Below, in pieces: positions 2,796 to 5,573 of a stretch of 7,047 bases of DNA. Made by a program: the position numbers and the translations under genes. How positions within the stretch are numbered: position 1 is the stretch's first letter; the number at the start of each line of letters is the position of its first letter. This DNA comes from a plasmid. The stretch is from assembly GCF_053078305.1 (NCBI RefSeq), contig NZ_CP166877.1. The stretch is one strand, 5' to 3'. The notes beneath the pieces are model-generated. The model saw nothing but the letters and a program-made list of their open reading frames with translations. It was not told the DNA's origin and searched no databases.

Positions 2796-3104
2796 TGGGG
2801 GCGTATTTTCCCCGGTTTCTTCCATAACCTTTTTACCGTTCAGATATTTACGGGCGAGGCGAATGCGTCTTGCCTGGTATACCGCTGAGTAAGCCTGGGT
2901 GGGATTCACACCATTACTGATTTCACTGACCACATGACGCTGATCAGCCAGTGTCAGCGTGTAAACCTGTTTCTGGATGAGGTCACGGGCTTTGTCATAC
3001 TCATATCCGGCAGCAACAAGGGTGTCGAGAAGTCGTTTGTCTGTTTTGTTCAGTTTATGGCGGGGTGATTTGCTCACATCGTTCTCCGTTTTTTCATGAT
3101 CCAA
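2787..3104 (-). CDS. Small basic protein, possibly DNA-binding (HTH-like), function unknown
   Basis: ORF-track ORF of 105 aa that begins at a TTG (RC of 3102-3104). A more plausible start is the in-frame GTG at 3077 (codon 10), with GGAG 6 nt upstream, giving a 96-aa product. The sequence is Lys/Arg-rich with a helix-turn-helix-like stretch (VVSEISNGVNPTQAYSAVYQARRIRLARKYL). Its 3' end overlaps the convergent 92-aa gene by 9 nt. Confidence 0.45.
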   Translation of the reverse strand: MDHEKTENDVSKSPRHKLNKTDKRLLDTLVAAGYEYDKARDLIQKQVYTLTLADQRHVVSEISNGVNPTQAYSAVYQARRIRLARKYLNGKKVMEETGENTPPSA

Positions 3105-3209
3105 CAGTTTTATATCTCATCCTGATTTGCTCCGGTGTTCTGTTTCGACGTTCTCAATGCCTGCCTCCCCATAGTGTGATCCTTATTGCAAAAATGAAAA
3201 TCCATGCTC

Positions 3210-3238
3210 TTGACACGGACAATGCTGAGTAGTAGGTT
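3210..3238 (+). promoter_or_regulatory. Colicin operon sigma70 promoter (-35 TTGACA 3210-3215; putative -10 TAGGTT 3233-3238)
   Basis: Consensus -35 TTGACA, a 17-bp spacer and an imperfect -10, immediately upstream of the tandem LexA boxes and about 80 bp upstream of the colicin ATG. This is the usual colicin promoter architecture. Confidence 0.7.
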
Positions 3239-3242
3239 TTCA

Positions 3243-3273
3243 CTGTACATAAAACCAGTGGTTATATGTACAG
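3243..3273 (+). promoter_or_regulatory. Tandem LexA (SOS) operators overlapping by 1 bp
   Basis: CTGTACATAAAACCAG (3243-3258) and GTGGTTATATGTACAG (3258-3273), each close to CTGT-N8-ACAG. The double overlapping SOS box is the hallmark of colicin promoters, and the arrangement is near-identical to the colicin E1 operator as I recall it. Confidence 0.85.
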
Positions 3274-3317
3274 TATGCTGTTTTTAATTTATTGTTTTAA
3301 TTATCAAAGAGGAATTT

Positions 3318-4964
3318 ATGGCTAAAGAACTAAGTGGATATGGCCCAACTGCTGGTGAGTCTATGGGGGGAACAGGGGCGAATCTGAATCAGCAAGGTGG
3401 AAATAATAATAGTAATAGTGGGGTTCACTGGGGTGGTGGCTCTGGGCATGGTAATAATGGTGGTCAGGGAAATTCAAATTCATCTGGTTCTACATCAACT
3501 GTGATGAAAACCGGTGAGTCATATCTGACTCCGTGGGGTGATGTTGTCATTAATAATGATGGCCTTCCGGTGATGAATGGTATTGTTATGACAGAAGAGA
3601 ATTCAACTCTGGTTGATAATCCATTTGGAGGGGTCTCCAGAGTTCTTAATTCTTTAATTAGTGATATGCCATCACTTTTTGCAGAAAGCTCAGGAAATAA
3701 CAACAATAACACTGCTTCAGTTAATACTGCACCAACGAATGCTCAGGTCAGTGATATGGATAAGAGTTCGAAGGTGGTGGGTAATGTAATTAATGAAAAA
3801 CAAAAGCAGAAGAATAAAATTGCTACACAGATTAGTGAAAAACAGAAGAAAATAGAGGAGATGAAAAAAGTATTCAAGCATCATTCTTATCATGGTATCA
3901 CTGATCTTGAGAGGGATGTTGATGAGTTGCAAAAAAAATCAAATCAGCTTGATGCAGATATTAGCAAACTTAATTCTTATAAAAATACATTGCAAAGTAA
4001 AATTGGTGATGTGAATAAACAGAAGGAAGCTGAAGAAAAGGCTCGTGAAAATGCAGAGGTCGCTGAACATGAAACTCTTAATGAAGAGAAACAGGCGGTG
4101 GTGGAAGCAGAGAAGCGTTTAGATGAGGCGAAAGCTGAACTGGCGAAGGCTGAAAGTGATGTACAGAGTAAGCAAGCTACTGTTTCCAGAGTTGCAGGAG
4201 AGCTTGAAAACGCTCAGAAGAGTGTTGACGTGAAGGTCACCGGATTTCCGGGATGGCGTGACGTTCAGAAAAAACTACAGCGTCAGCTTGAAGCTAAGCA
4301 GGCTGAGTACTCCGCAGTTGAAAATGAACTTAAGAATGCTGTTAGTTTCAGGGATGGCAAGGCTGCTGAGGTAAAAGAGGCAGAGCAGAAATTAAAAGAA
4401 GCTCAGGATGCTCTTGAAAAGAGCCAGATAAAAGATGCTGTTGATACTATGGTTGGGTTTTATCAATATATAACCGAACAATATGGAGAAAAATACGCAA
4501 AAATTGCTCAGGATTTAGCGGAAAAGTCTAAAGGAAAGAAAATTCAAGGTGTTGATGAAGCTCTGGCAGCATTTGAAAAGTATAAAAATGTACTGGATAA
4601 GAAATTCAGTAAAGTTGATCGGGATGCTATTTTTAATGCGTTAGAGTCTGTTACTTATGATGAGTGGGCAAAGCATCTAGAAAAGATCTCTAAGGCTCTT
4701 AAGGTTACCGGATATTTGTCTTTCGGGAATGATGTATGGGATGGTACCCGGAAGGGATTAGAAACAGGAGACTGGAGGCCTTTATTTGTCACTCTGGAGA
4801 AGAGTGCGGTAGATTTCGGAGTGGCAAAAATTGTGGCATTAATGTTCAGTTTTATTGCTGGTGCTCCTCTTGGTTTCTGGGGGATTGCTATTATCACTGG
4901 TATTGTTTCTTCTTACATAGGGGATGATGAGCTGAACAAACTTAATGAGTTGTTAGGGATTTAA
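3318..4964 (+). CDS. cka: Pore-forming colicin of the E1/K/5/10 family; length and organisation best fit colicin K
   Basis: 548-aa ORF with AAGAGG SD 5 nt upstream. It has the three expected parts: a Gly/Asn/Ser-rich low-complexity N-terminal translocation domain, a long Lys/Glu-rich coiled-coil central region, and a C-terminal channel domain closely resembling the colicin E1 pore domain as I recall it ([59 protein letters not shown], then the hydrophobic hairpin [33 protein letters not shown]). Colicin K is 548 aa; the specific K assignment is from memory. Confidence 0.92.
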
Positions 4965-5251
4965 TATCTCTTTAGAGTGTAATATATGAAACTTGGCAAT
5001 CCTACTGGGATTGCCATTGCCAGGTAAAGTAAATAAAAAAGGTTGTATGAGTACCAAGGCTCTTTTTTTATGTTTGTCGTCTTTTGTATAAAAGAAAATA
5101 TCGTTAGTTTTGAATATGGGTATAGTAATACATGTATTGATGCAAAAAATATAAAAGCTAGAGATATATCATTGTTATAGTTAAGTGTTAAATATAATAA
5201 CCATGGCAGAAGTGATTCAGGTAAATTATGTAGGTAGTATTTTAGATACAT
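4961..5251 (-). CDS. cki: Colicin immunity protein (pore-former type, integral membrane)
   Basis: 96-aa ORF convergent with the colicin gene. It is very hydrophobic and AT-rich with about three predicted transmembrane segments ([12 protein letters not shown]..., [16 protein letters not shown]..., [23 protein letters not shown]). Position and opposite orientation between colicin and lysis genes are typical of pore-forming colicin immunity genes. Its stop overlaps the colicin stop in TTAA (4961-4964). Confidence 0.85.
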
Positions 5252-5275
5252 AATTTTTTCTTTTGTTGGAGGTGT

Positions 5276-5407
5276 ATGAAAATAGTGCTTTTTCTAATTA
5301 CAATATTATCCTTGTCAGGATGTCAAGCAAACTATATTCGTGATGTACAAGGAGGAACCGTTGCGCCATCTTCGTCTTCTGAACTGACGGGGATCGCGGT
5401 TCAGTAG
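5276..5407 (+). CDS. ckl: Colicin lysis (release) lipoprotein
   Basis: Not in the ORF track because it is short. Manual translation gives [43 protein letters not shown] (43 aa): signal peptide, lipobox LSG-C, and the conserved mature motif [11 protein letters not shown] typical of colicin lysis proteins. GGAGG lies just upstream. Confidence 0.85.
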
Positions 5408-5415
5408 AAAAGATC

Positions 5416-5441
5416 AAAGGATCTCTTGAGATCCTTTTTTT
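5416..5441 (+). terminator. Rho-independent terminator-like hairpin plus T-run at the end of the colicin operon
   Basis: AAAGGATCTC-TT-GAGATCCTTT inverted repeat followed by TTTTTTT, 9 nt after the lysis gene stop. The same motif occurs at the equivalent place in pMB1/pBR322. It overlaps the RNAII promoter -35. Confidence 0.5.
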
Positions 5442-5454
5442 CTGCGCGTAATCT
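5426..5454 (+). promoter_or_regulatory. RNAII (replication primer) promoter: -35 TTGAGA (5426-5431), -10 TAATCT (5449-5454)
   Basis: Matches the ColE1/pMB1 RNAII promoter context (TTGAGATCCTTTTTTTCTGCGCGTAATCTGCTGC), with a 17-bp spacer. Confidence 0.7.
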
Positions 5455-5467
5455 GCTGCCTGTAAAC

Positions 5468-5573
5468 GAAAAAACCCGCCTTGTGGCGGGTTCTTCCGTC
5501 CGATCAGAAGTCTTCGACCTCTTCTAATCGGCGGTGGTAACTGGCTATCGCAGAGCACAGGTACCTAAATTGT
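5468..5573 (-). ncRNA. RNAI antisense copy-number control RNA
   Basis: The reverse complement reads ACAAUUUAGGUACCUGUGCUCUGCGAUAGCCAGUUACC..CCGAUUAGAAGAGGUCGAAGACUUCUGAUCGG..AACCCGCCACAAGGCGGGUUUUUU. This gives three stem-loops and a terminal hairpin plus U-run, homologous in layout to pMB1 RNAI but with different stem and loop sequences. Confidence 0.8.

Follow-up and report, generated by a model that had tools for sequence, protein, structure and literature searches.

Modular organization of the low-complexity N-terminus of a plasmid-borne colicin K and its probable role in Tol-dependent translocation

The colicin gene of this plasmid encodes colicin K (ColK), and the Gly/Asn/Ser-rich stretch flagged at positions 3370 to 3740 belongs to its N-terminal translocation domain. 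We consider it very probable (about 0.88) that the flagged stretch makes up most of a Tol-dependent (group A) translocation domain in which short functional modules are joined by flexible Gly/Asn/Ser linkers, the functions of the modules being assigned wholly by homology to colicins A (ColA) and E9 (ColE9). The window is the whole of a 7-kb ColE1-type plasmid (7,047 nt); position 3370 lies within codon 18 of cka and position 3740 is the end of codon 141, which places the flagged stretch at residues 18 to 141. This is already known, ordinary biology that had been correctly recognized in an earlier note on the sequence, and it shows that a colicin translocation domain is recognizable from composition alone on a first-pass reading. 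The refinements presented here (a modular domain, a first low-complexity part under strong purifying selection, a motif resembling OmpF-binding site 2 (OBS2) of E-type colicins, a ColA-type TolA module and no canonical TolB box) are useful for annotation and for the engineering of colicin T/R domains as delivery vehicles, for example, in lysin fusions (PMC10100823). The features are listed in Table 1.

Table 1. Coordinates of the colicin K gene, segments of its N-terminal region and neighboring features in the window
Feature	Positions	Strand	Basis or remark
LexA-box-like site, CTGTACATAAAACCAG	3243-3258	+	Pattern search, 1 mismatch; upstream of cka
cka, colicin K structural gene, 548 aa	3318-4964	+	Open reading frame list
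Conserved head, residues 1-26	3318-3395	+	Common to colicin S4
Asn/Ser run N29-S34, AAT AAT AAT AGT AAT AGT	3402-3419	+	AATAGT x2 at 3408-3419, copy-number site
OBS2-like motif, residues 36-45	3423-3452	+	Sequence match to OBS2 position of E-type colicins
Gly/Asn/Ser-rich linker, residues 46-61	3453-3500	+	20-residue entropy down to 2.16 bits, Gly/Asn/Ser up to 85%
Putative TolA-binding module (ColA_N type), residues 64-117	3507-3668	+	Pfam PF22348, PDB 3qdr_B / 3iax_B
Second low-complexity stretch, residues 124-141	3687-3740	+	Linker, TolA module to coiled coil
Immunity gene, 96 aa, CKI	4961-5251	-	Pfam PF17500, E 5.6e-48
Colicin release lysis lipoprotein gene	5276-5407	+	Pfam Lysis_col, E 1.6e-23; near-identical plasmids annotate likewise

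Annotated cka genes were 93 to 100% identical at the DNA level to the open reading frame at 3318 to 4964, whose product consists, in order, of the translocation domain, a coiled-coil receptor-binding region and a C-terminal pore-forming domain. The Pfam pore domain Colicin (PF01024) was matched at residues 364 to 545 (E = 8.8e-32), and the colicin E1 channel domain (PDB 2i88) matched the C-terminal pore region (E = 1e-76). None of the three gene products (colicin, immunity and lysis proteins) was hit by a specific NCBIfam model. Compared with Cka of pColK-K235 (NC_006881.1), the present colicin was identical over residues 1 to 261 and 95% identical overall; the DNA was 95 to 100% identical in each 60-nt block between 3310 and about 4626. 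The flagged region itself did not differ, and the two plasmids had a common gene order of colicin, opposite-strand immunity gene and lysis gene. Both near-identity to Cka across the translocation and receptor regions and a pore domain were, as expected for a colicin K, found. The LexA-box-like site lies 60 nt 5' of the cka start, a placement that we take to suit SOS-regulated colicin promoters; matches to the LexA-box pattern were no more numerous within the window than expected by chance, and a sigma-70 promoter scan over 3100 to 3800 gave zero sites. ColK is a group A pore former that binds Tsx and depends on a porin and on TolABQR (PMC9558359, PMC10100823, PMC10424213), and its Tol and porin dependence is further covered elsewhere (PMC3739937, PMC8561637). 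Residues 146 to 440 were 98 to 100% identical to reference ColK, which suggests that the present colicin likewise binds Tsx.

The earlier note described the first ~140 residues as compositionally extreme and quoted two peptides from them. Both peptides were present where it had placed them, the first beginning at residue 17 and the second spanning residues 124 to 141, and the description held for residues 16 to 60 and for the Asn-rich segment at 124 to 141 but not for the central third. Gly, Asn and Ser account for 33 of the 45 residues from 16 to 60 (73%); the binomial P of this excess is about 2e-17 when the remainder of ColK serves as background and about 2e-16 with E. coli-like frequencies. 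The lowest entropy of any 45-residue segment of ColK was that of residues 17 to 61, at 2.66 bits, compared with 3.33 +/- 0.08 bits in shuffled sequences, none of which (0/2000) was as low. Additionally, residues 123 to 142 were 35% Asn (P about 1e-4). ColK therefore carries an N-terminal Gly-rich low-complexity segment ahead of its receptor-binding domain. In contrast, the central third (about residues 62 to 118) could not be called low complexity, having normal entropy, a Pfam match and a conserved module of the TolA-binding type; residues 63 to 122 had an ordinary 20-residue entropy of 3.1 to 3.65 bits, with 30% Gly/Asn/Ser and 40% hydrophobic residues.

The proposal that this translocation domain is intrinsically disordered was supported by structure prediction and by crystals of related colicins. 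In the AlphaFold prediction, residues 1 to 61 and 115 to 139 had no secondary structure, with pLDDT values of about 30 (about 31 in the linker at residues 46 to 61 and about 28 to 35 in the second low-complexity stretch), and helices began at residue 140. The run used a shallow alignment of 11 sequences only (pTM 0.37), and low values (pLDDT 40 to 55) were also given to the pore domain, whose folded state is certain; thus, low pLDDT alone is weak evidence of disorder. However, residues 1 to 67 were unmodelled in the crystal of colicin S4 (ColS4), which matches ColK at 98% over its first 43 residues (PMC2649078), 12 of 107 residues were ordered in the ColA(1-107)-TolB crystal (PMC2821528), and colicin N-terminal domains are described as intrinsically unstructured (PMC3739937). 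Together, the prediction and the ColS4 and ColA crystals suggest that the ColK N-terminus is disordered in solution.

The central third matched the TolA-binding region of ColA. The Pfam model ColA_N (PF22348) aligned with ColK residues 71 to 114 (E = 9.5e-18), PDB searches returned 3qdr_B (ColA 53-107 with TolAIII; E = 1.4e-12) and 3iax_B (E = 7e-18), and the module was 57 to 59% identical to ColA (59% by tblastn). The TolA motifs of ColA are 57-SYNT-60 and 89-PYGR-92, residues 52 to 97 bind TolAIII and Tyr58 is essential (PMC3365938). The corresponding ColK motifs are 68-SYLT-71 (3519-3530) and 102-PFGG-105, the essential Tyr58 aligns with Tyr69 in SYLT, and the RVLNSL strand is conserved, so that by sequence homology ColK contains a region of the ColA 52-107 type, including the Tyr. 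AlphaFold placed beta strands within residues 68 to 110 (pLDDT 65 to 70). At the TolA-strand site, ColA R92-R96 reads RGFTR and ColK reads G-VSR, and with this one-residue deletion strand addition may not proceed in quite the same way. The protein sequence of the module was 100% identical in nearly all ColK alleles, and modules of the ColA_N type were found to precede unrelated cargo, namely, an Erwinia DNase, other Serratia pore domains and a Klebsiella colicin-Z-related domain. Homology to ColA thus points to TolA as the probable partner of the ColK module. ColA (TolB box 9-20, TolA-binding region 52-107; PDB 3IAX, 3QDR) and ColK have in common the order of N-terminal epitope, GGGS-HGN-GG Gly-rich stretch and TolA module, but the DGTGW TolB box occurs in ColA only, ColK has an extra 10-residue insertion that ColA lacks, and the receptor is BtuB for ColA and Tsx for ColK.

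Within the first low-complexity part, residues 36 to 45 resemble OBS2, which in ColE9 comprises residues 54 to 63 (PMC8561637). These ten residues matched residues 54 to 63 of an E-type tRNase colicin at all positions (10/10), those of ColE3 at 9/10 and those of ColE9 at 8/10. Over the 21 residues from ColK 32 to 52, which correspond to E3/E9 residues 50 to 70, identity was 18/21, 17/21 and 16/21, respectively, and none of 5000 composition-preserving shuffles scored as high; an exact match of 13 residues to an E-type colicin at the OBS2 position likewise lay beyond all 5000 shuffles. The likeness extended to the DNA, with 80 to 85% identity to E-type colicins over 48 to 60 nt (blastn, E = 2e-5). 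BLASTP with composition adjustment did not report the OBS2 match, so its significance rests on the shuffle test and the DNA match. The ColE9 and ColE3 sequences were retrieved with an E-type colicin N-terminus as the query. The likeness to ColE9 and ColE3 suggests that residues 36 to 45 may bind OmpF. Barneoud-Arnoulet et al. are said to have named OmpA, not OmpF, as the outer-membrane translocator of ColK in 2010, and the choice of porin is therefore open to dispute. Other authors give OmpF as the ColK porin (PMC10100823, PMC3739937, PMC9558359). Like ColK, in which disorder is probable, ColE9 and ColE3 have a Gly-rich disordered N-terminus, with an upstream epitope at a co-linear position. 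They differ from ColK in carrying OBS1 (SGGDGRGHN...) and a two-Trp TolB-binding epitope, both missing from ColK. ColK likewise lacks their folded T domain (Pfam Cloacin) but has a putative direct TolA-binding module, which ColE9/E3 do not have.

It is unlikely that the Gly/Asn/Ser stretches are instead a passive flexible spacer, devoid of sequence-specific epitopes and dependent on composition and length alone, although their extreme composition, the lack of predicted structure and the blindness of composition-corrected BLASTP to the E colicin similarity would all agree with such a role. Selection separated the two low-complexity parts. Against the M3-type homologue, dN/dS was 0.08 for residues 1 to 62 (dS 0.55), 0.13 for residues 63 to 122 and 0.37 for residues 123 to 145, and in the second stretch the values of 0.37 to 0.49 contrasted with 0.08 to 0.18 in the adjoining segments. 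Residues 1 to 62 are thus under purifying selection as strong as that on the TolA module, which a mere spacer would not explain; neither would it explain the 13-residue and 18/21 matches to E-type colicins at OBS2 nor a head motif that is kept across colicins of differing downstream sequence. Residues 123 to 145, with their high dN/dS and tolerated indels, do fit a spacer, and residues 124 to 141 are a fast-evolving linker.

Among 1.84 billion representative proteins, 17 contained the head, and those retrieved were colicin N-termini or short fragments thereof; besides colicins K and S4, it is present in an M3-type colicin and in one from Escherichia albertii. The first 138 to 147 nt of cka were 94 to 96% identical to colicin S4 genes, corresponding to near-identity over the first ~46 residues, beyond which ColS4 has its own translocation domain (Pfam PF22512) and not a ColA_N module. 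The head shared by ColK and S4 is a recombined cassette. A word-indexed protein search with residues 1 to 161 gave 12 matches, mainly short fragments with little diversity, and phmmer against the PDB with residues 1 to 62 returned colicin S4 alone even at E <= 10, without ColE9. A search for Tol-box motifs had been suggested, but the canonical TolB box core, DG[ST]GW(SSE), was absent from translated ColK. The head is co-linear with the TolB box site of ColA and the E colicins, yet the anchoring Asp, Trp and Glu have been lost: of the ColA residues D11, T13, W15 and E18, which are essential for TolB binding (PMC2821528), the Thr alone has a counterpart in ColK. We tentatively suggest that the head may be a distinct, uncharacterized periplasmic or porin-binding epitope, the likeliest forms of which would be a non-canonical TolB site or an OBS1-type OmpF plug, and which would travel by recombination among the four colicins that carry it, but we regard this as doubtful. 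If it were true, ColK and S4, both of which genetically require TolB, would engage this protein in a structurally new way; which ColK segment engages TolB is an assignment that we infer.

Taken together, the preferred reading of a Tol-dependent domain of modules and linkers would order the N-terminus as the head (residues 1-26), the Asn/Ser micro-repeat (29-34), the OBS2-like motif (36-45) and the Gly/Asn/Ser linker (46-61), then a 55-residue TolA-binding module homologous to ColA 53-107 that would fold only upon binding, and then the Asn-rich linker (124-141) that connects to the coiled-coil Tsx-binding region. In a scheme modelled on ColE9 and ColA, import would start with the binding of the central domain to Tsx. 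The unfolded N-terminus would pass through the porin lumen, where Gly-rich segments would suit the narrow eyelet, and its epitopes would be displayed in the periplasm. The TolA module would join TolA domain III by beta-strand addition, with Tyr69 in the role of ColA Tyr58, and coupling to the proton-motive-force-driven TolQRA would pull in the pore-forming domain.

Expansion and contraction had also been expected at the Asn runs, and this was borne out on a small scale only. Every indel among homologues preserved the reading frame and fell within one of the two Asn/Ser runs, the second of which includes N127-N131 at 3696 to 3710. In the DNA alignment, the AATAGT hexamer was present in three copies in 550-aa ColK alleles, in two copies in most ColK alleles and S4, and in one copy in the M3-type colicin, while one-codon insertions in the second stretch occurred in one aligned homologue and in the M3-type colicin. 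The form with 6 additional nucleotides was carried by five complete E. coli genomes. On the other hand, of the 32 full-length matches listed among complete E. coli genomes, no fewer than 23 were unchanged in length, and most ColK alleles had the same length and sequence across the flagged region. Copy numbers of 1, 2 or 3 in runs that hold every indel are a slipped-strand signature, and they might be read, together with the longer allele, as a contingency-type hypermutable repeat that diversifies or switches colicin function. We consider this very unlikely, since the TolA module is nearly invariant, the repeat has only two copies here, and all indels being in frame leaves no on/off switching. 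A true tandem array in 3300 to 3800 was rejected because Tandem Repeats Finder returned 0 rows there; the only repeats were the two-copy hexamer and short AAT/AAC codon runs.

The closest relatives of ColK in the receptor-binding and pore regions are colicins 5 and 10, the latter being 77 to 100% identical to the present protein over residues 262 to 548 (Tsx-binding and pore regions), which might suggest a TonB-dependent (group B) translocation domain as in those colicins. This is almost certainly wrong, because the N-terminus is of another kind: BLASTP detected no similarity between ColK(1-145) and the N-terminus of colicin 10 (lowest E value 2.4), the aligned N-termini had no conserved blocks and 23 to 48% nucleotide identity, and ColK carries the ColA-type TolA module. 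Colicins 5 and 10 are TolC/TonB dependent and ColK is listed as TolABQR dependent (PMC9558359). Thus, of the Tol/Ton partners envisaged in the earlier note, Tol stands and Ton does not, and the suggested length comparison could draw on rare in-frame variants among ColK alleles and homologues but not on colicins 5 and 10, whose unrelated N-terminus makes them unusable for it. Equally improbable is that the composition reflects another DNA feature, for instance an RNA element or a gene that overlaps cka or runs antisense to it. Although the region is overlapped by minus-strand open reading frames at 3361-3483 (40 aa) and 3464-3712 (82 aa) and a terminator-like hairpin lies at 3624 to 3641, substitutions relative to homologues were concentrated at third codon positions of the plus-strand frame, where 52 of 88 fell, against 8 at second positions. 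No Rfam match was found there, and it is the plus-strand product that is significantly matched in Pfam and the PDB.

Outside the flagged region, the present plasmid departs from pColK-K235 in pore residues 441 to 520 and in the immunity gene, both of which are colicin-10-like here. Residues 441 to 520 were 70% identical to ColK and 91% identical to colicin 10, and a cognate Cki with the matching immunity-determining hairpin was not found. Judged by sequence, the module of pore hairpin and immunity protein is colicin-10-like and not that of canonical colicin K. The immunity protein was 69% identical to Cki and 79% identical to Cti, and the NCBI annotation reads "Cki family" only.

The low-complexity region at 3370-3740 comprises codons 18 to 141 of cka, the large ORF that near-identical public records annotate as the pore-forming bacteriocin colicin K (ColK). 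The window, 7047 bp long, is an entire ColE1-type plasmid, small and mobilizable, that carries mob genes. Its closest match, NZ_CP046541.1 (pFHI_NMBU_10_02), is of equal length; over 3250-5450 the two share 99.5% identity and differ at 11 nucleotides, and the exact colicin protein is present on 41 public contigs.

Coordinates of the colicin operon and the replication-control RNA, with the basis of each assignment
Feature	Coordinates	Strand	Basis
Colicin ORF, 548 aa	3318-4964	+	ORF list
Immunity gene, 96 aa	4961-5251	-	Pfam CKI
Lysis lipoprotein gene	5276-5407	+	Pfam Lysis_col
RNAI gene, ColE1-type origin antisense replication-control RNA	5466-5572	-	Rfam RF00106, 53.4 bits

A LexA-box-like sequence, CTGTACATAAAACCAG, followed by GTGGTTATATGTACAG, lies within 3243-3277, some 60 nt before the start of cka, where a putative SOS-induced colicin promoter would be expected; a simple sigma-70 scan returned no promoter in 3100-3800. 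Two of the 11 differences from NZ_CP046541.1 fall at 3277-3278, directly downstream of this box, and two others cause the coiled-coil changes A262V and A269D.

The tract is not uniform, and the description of the first ~140 residues as compositionally extreme in the earlier note was only partly confirmed, while the peptides quoted there occur at the positions assigned to them. Residues 16-60 are indeed extreme, with Gly, Asn or Ser at 33 of 45 positions (binomial P about 1e-16 to 1e-17), and the minimum 45-residue Shannon entropy of the protein, at residues 17-61, was matched by none of 2000 protein shuffles. A second, shorter low-complexity stretch, 35% of which is Asn, spans residues 124-141. 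However, residues 63-122, flanked by these two segments, have ordinary entropy, with just 30% Gly/Asn/Ser and 40% hydrophobic residues.

Residues 62-118 match Pfam ColA_N (PF22348; E 9.5e-18), in agreement with the earlier assignment of the region to a colicin translocation domain. Solved colicin A peptides match as well, at 57 to 59% identity: chain B of 3QDR, which is ColA 53-107 in complex with TolA domain III (E 1.4e-12), and chain B of 3IAX (E 7e-18). The ColA region binds TolAIII through beta-strand addition, and its TolA motifs are 57-SYNT-60, in which Tyr58 is essential, and 89-PYGR-92 (PMC3365938); the ColK counterparts are 68-SYLT-71 and 102-PFGG-105, after which the RVLNSL strand is conserved. 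Judged by sequence, a clear TolA box is present in ColK. The protein sequence of this module is 100% identical in nearly all ColK alleles. Elsewhere it precedes unrelated cargo (an Erwinia DNase, other pore domains in Serratia, and a colicin-Z-related domain in Klebsiella) and thus appears to behave as a portable TolA-recruiting unit. A terminator-like hairpin at 3624-3641 (TTTGGAGGGGTCTCCAGA with a T-rich tail), inside the cka coding sequence in the codons of the module, is probably a chance match.

The search for Tol boxes proposed in the earlier note therefore gave a clear TolA box but no canonical TolB box (DG[ST]GW) in ColK. The literature lists ColK as TolABQR-dependent (PMC9558359; PMC10424213), yet it lacks this box of ColA and the E colicins. 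In alignments, the ColK head (residues 1-26) takes the place that the TolB box holds in ColA-type and E-type colicins. Four residues of ColA are essential to its binding of TolB (D11, T13, W15, and E18; PMC2821528); just the Thr has a counterpart in ColK, and the colicin S4 paper says likewise of the shared head (PMC2649078). ColK and colicin S4 have this head in common almost unchanged (94 to 96% nucleotide identity over the first 138 to 147 nt), and it is also found in an S4-like colicin of large IncF plasmids, a 408-aa colicin of a mouse E. coli strain, and an Escherichia albertii colicin. Among 1.84 billion representative proteins scanned, only 17 matched the head at E <= 1e-3, and those fetched were colicin N-termini or short fragments beginning with the head. 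Across the compared proteins (P0048-P0058), the head motif (3318-3395) runs from M[AS] to [QE] (19 protein letters between them not shown). Some of the head proteins continue with ERPDNS.PGGGSHGNSGG, a close parallel to the colicin A sequence ERGSGPEPGGGSHGNSGG directly after the TolB box, and this parallel suggests that the head may be a diverged positional equivalent of that box.

Within the first low-complexity segment, ColK residues 36-45 agree at all 10 positions with an E-type tRNase colicin (L007, residues 54-63), at 9 of 10 with ColE3, and at 8 of 10 with ColE9; over 21 residues the identities are 18, 17, and 16, respectively, values reached by none of 5000 composition-preserving shuffles. 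The segment was also recovered by blastn against 7.3 Gb (80 to 85% identity, E 2e-5). The ColE9 segment at 54-63 is OmpF-binding site 2 (OBS2), which is Gly-rich and spans the porin eyelet (PMC8561637). We found no mention of the WGGGSG motif of ColK in the searchable literature, the coverage of which is incomplete.

The first ~140 residues were also thought to be probably disordered, which is likely right for the free protein, judging from crystals of related colicins, although the middle is not compositionally extreme. AlphaFold2, with an 11-sequence alignment, assigned no secondary structure and a pLDDT of about 30 to residues 1-61 and 115-139, short beta strands (pLDDT 65 to 70) to residues 68-110, and helices from residue 140. 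The pore domain likewise scored low (40 to 55), an effect of the shallow alignment, and pLDDT taken by itself is therefore weak evidence of disorder. The crystal proxies offer stronger support: residues 1-67 of colicin S4, which shares 98% identity with ColK over its first 43 residues, could not be modelled (PMC2649078), and in the ColA(1-107)-TolB crystal only residues 9-20 were ordered (PMC2821528), which argues that the TolA module itself may be disordered until it meets TolA.

Compared with the M3-type homologue (synonymous divergence 0.4 to 1.2), dN/dS was 0.08 for residues 1-62, 0.13 for residues 63-122, and 0.37 for residues 123-145; the counts are small but the direction is clear, and the segments ranked identically against the 549-aa variant L005. 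The first Gly/Asn/Ser-rich segment is under as much constraint as the TolA module, which would be expected of a sequence that holds linear binding epitopes. The second, which joins the TolA module to the long helices predicted from residue 140, evolves in a spacer-like manner. Third positions of the + frame hold 52 of the 88 differences, an excess that rules out a concealed gene in a different frame or on the other strand.

The whole region is carried by 42 records from complete E. coli genomes, and indels were tallied in the 32 full-length rows listed. Length was unchanged in 23 of these, increased by 6 nt in five and by 3 nt in one, and decreased by a net 3 nt in three, all M3-type. The +6 allele has a third copy of AATAGT, normally present twice in ColK and S4 and once in the M3-type colicin, and the remaining indels are one-codon insertions within the Asn run at 3696-3710. 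All are in frame and inside one of two Asn/Ser runs, a pattern that supports slippage-type events, but rare ones. Thus, the expansion and contraction expected of the Asn-rich runs do occur there, but infrequently, and Tandem Repeats Finder reported no tandem array in the region, where the sole DNA repeats are the two-copy hexamer at 3408-3419 and short AAT/AAC codon runs. The proposed length comparison with colicins 5 and 10 falls away, their N-termini being unrelated and TonB-type (BLASTP E 2.4).

The best-supported reading transfers the ColE9/ColA import model to ColK by homology. The sequence comparisons establish which gene this is, its composition, the homology of its modules, the selection acting on it, and where its indels lie; binding and disorder are inferred. 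Francis et al. stated explicitly that the ColE9 mechanism is likely valid for ColA, ColK, and ColN (PMC8561637). The central coiled-coil region would bind Tsx, and the unfolded N-terminus would then reptate through a porin, the 7-Angstrom eyelet of which would suit the Gly-rich OBS2-like segment. The periplasmic end would present the epitopes, residues 64-117 would fold onto TolA domain III, and the proton-motive-force-coupled TolQRA complex would drive import of the pore-forming domain. The ColK translocation domain is a textbook object; the OBS2-position identity with E colicins, the strong constraint on the first low-complexity segment, the varying copy number of the hexamer, and the way in which head and TolA module are shared like cassettes are refinements and no new kind of feature.

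Over about 4627-5226, the window has 55 to 87% nucleotide identity with reference ColK (pColK-K235) versus 92 to 97% with colicin 10, the latter dropping to 68% where the immunity gene has its 5' end. In the pore domain, residues 441-520 share 91% identity with colicin 10 and 70% with ColK; the immunity protein, named just "Cki family" by NCBI, shares 79% with Cti and 69% with Cki. By these identities, 4627-5251, which holds the immunity gene together with the stretch of the pore domain that determines immunity, is not canonical colicin K. The ColK uptake chassis may be joined to a third, possibly unnamed, immunity type, which fits the mosaic evolution that Pilsl and Braun reportedly described for colicins K, 5, and 10. 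The pore/immunity module occurs in 2 of 72,556 PLSDB plasmids, but 123 contigs carry the exact immunity protein.

The ColK-type T domain itself is, on the arrangements compared, a shuffled module. The mouse E. coli M3 plasmid (L008; NZ_CP010185.1, 4980 bp) has, at 629-2205, a locus for a 408-aa colicin whose translocation domain is ColK-type (79% identity). The central region of this colicin is far shorter and its pore domain is of another kind; after the colicin gene, on the other strand, comes an unannotated immunity-like ORF of 117 aa. The same ColK-type T domain is joined in P0045, a protein of 436 aa, to a pore domain whose C-terminus ends like colicin A. Another mosaic colicin locus may lie at 2501-4894 of L009 (NZ_CP075633.1, a 120-kb IncF plasmid), where a colicin of 498 aa, its translocation and receptor regions being those of colicin S4, is upstream of a cki-like immunity gene (96% identity with Cki), with two small membrane-protein-like ORFs between them.
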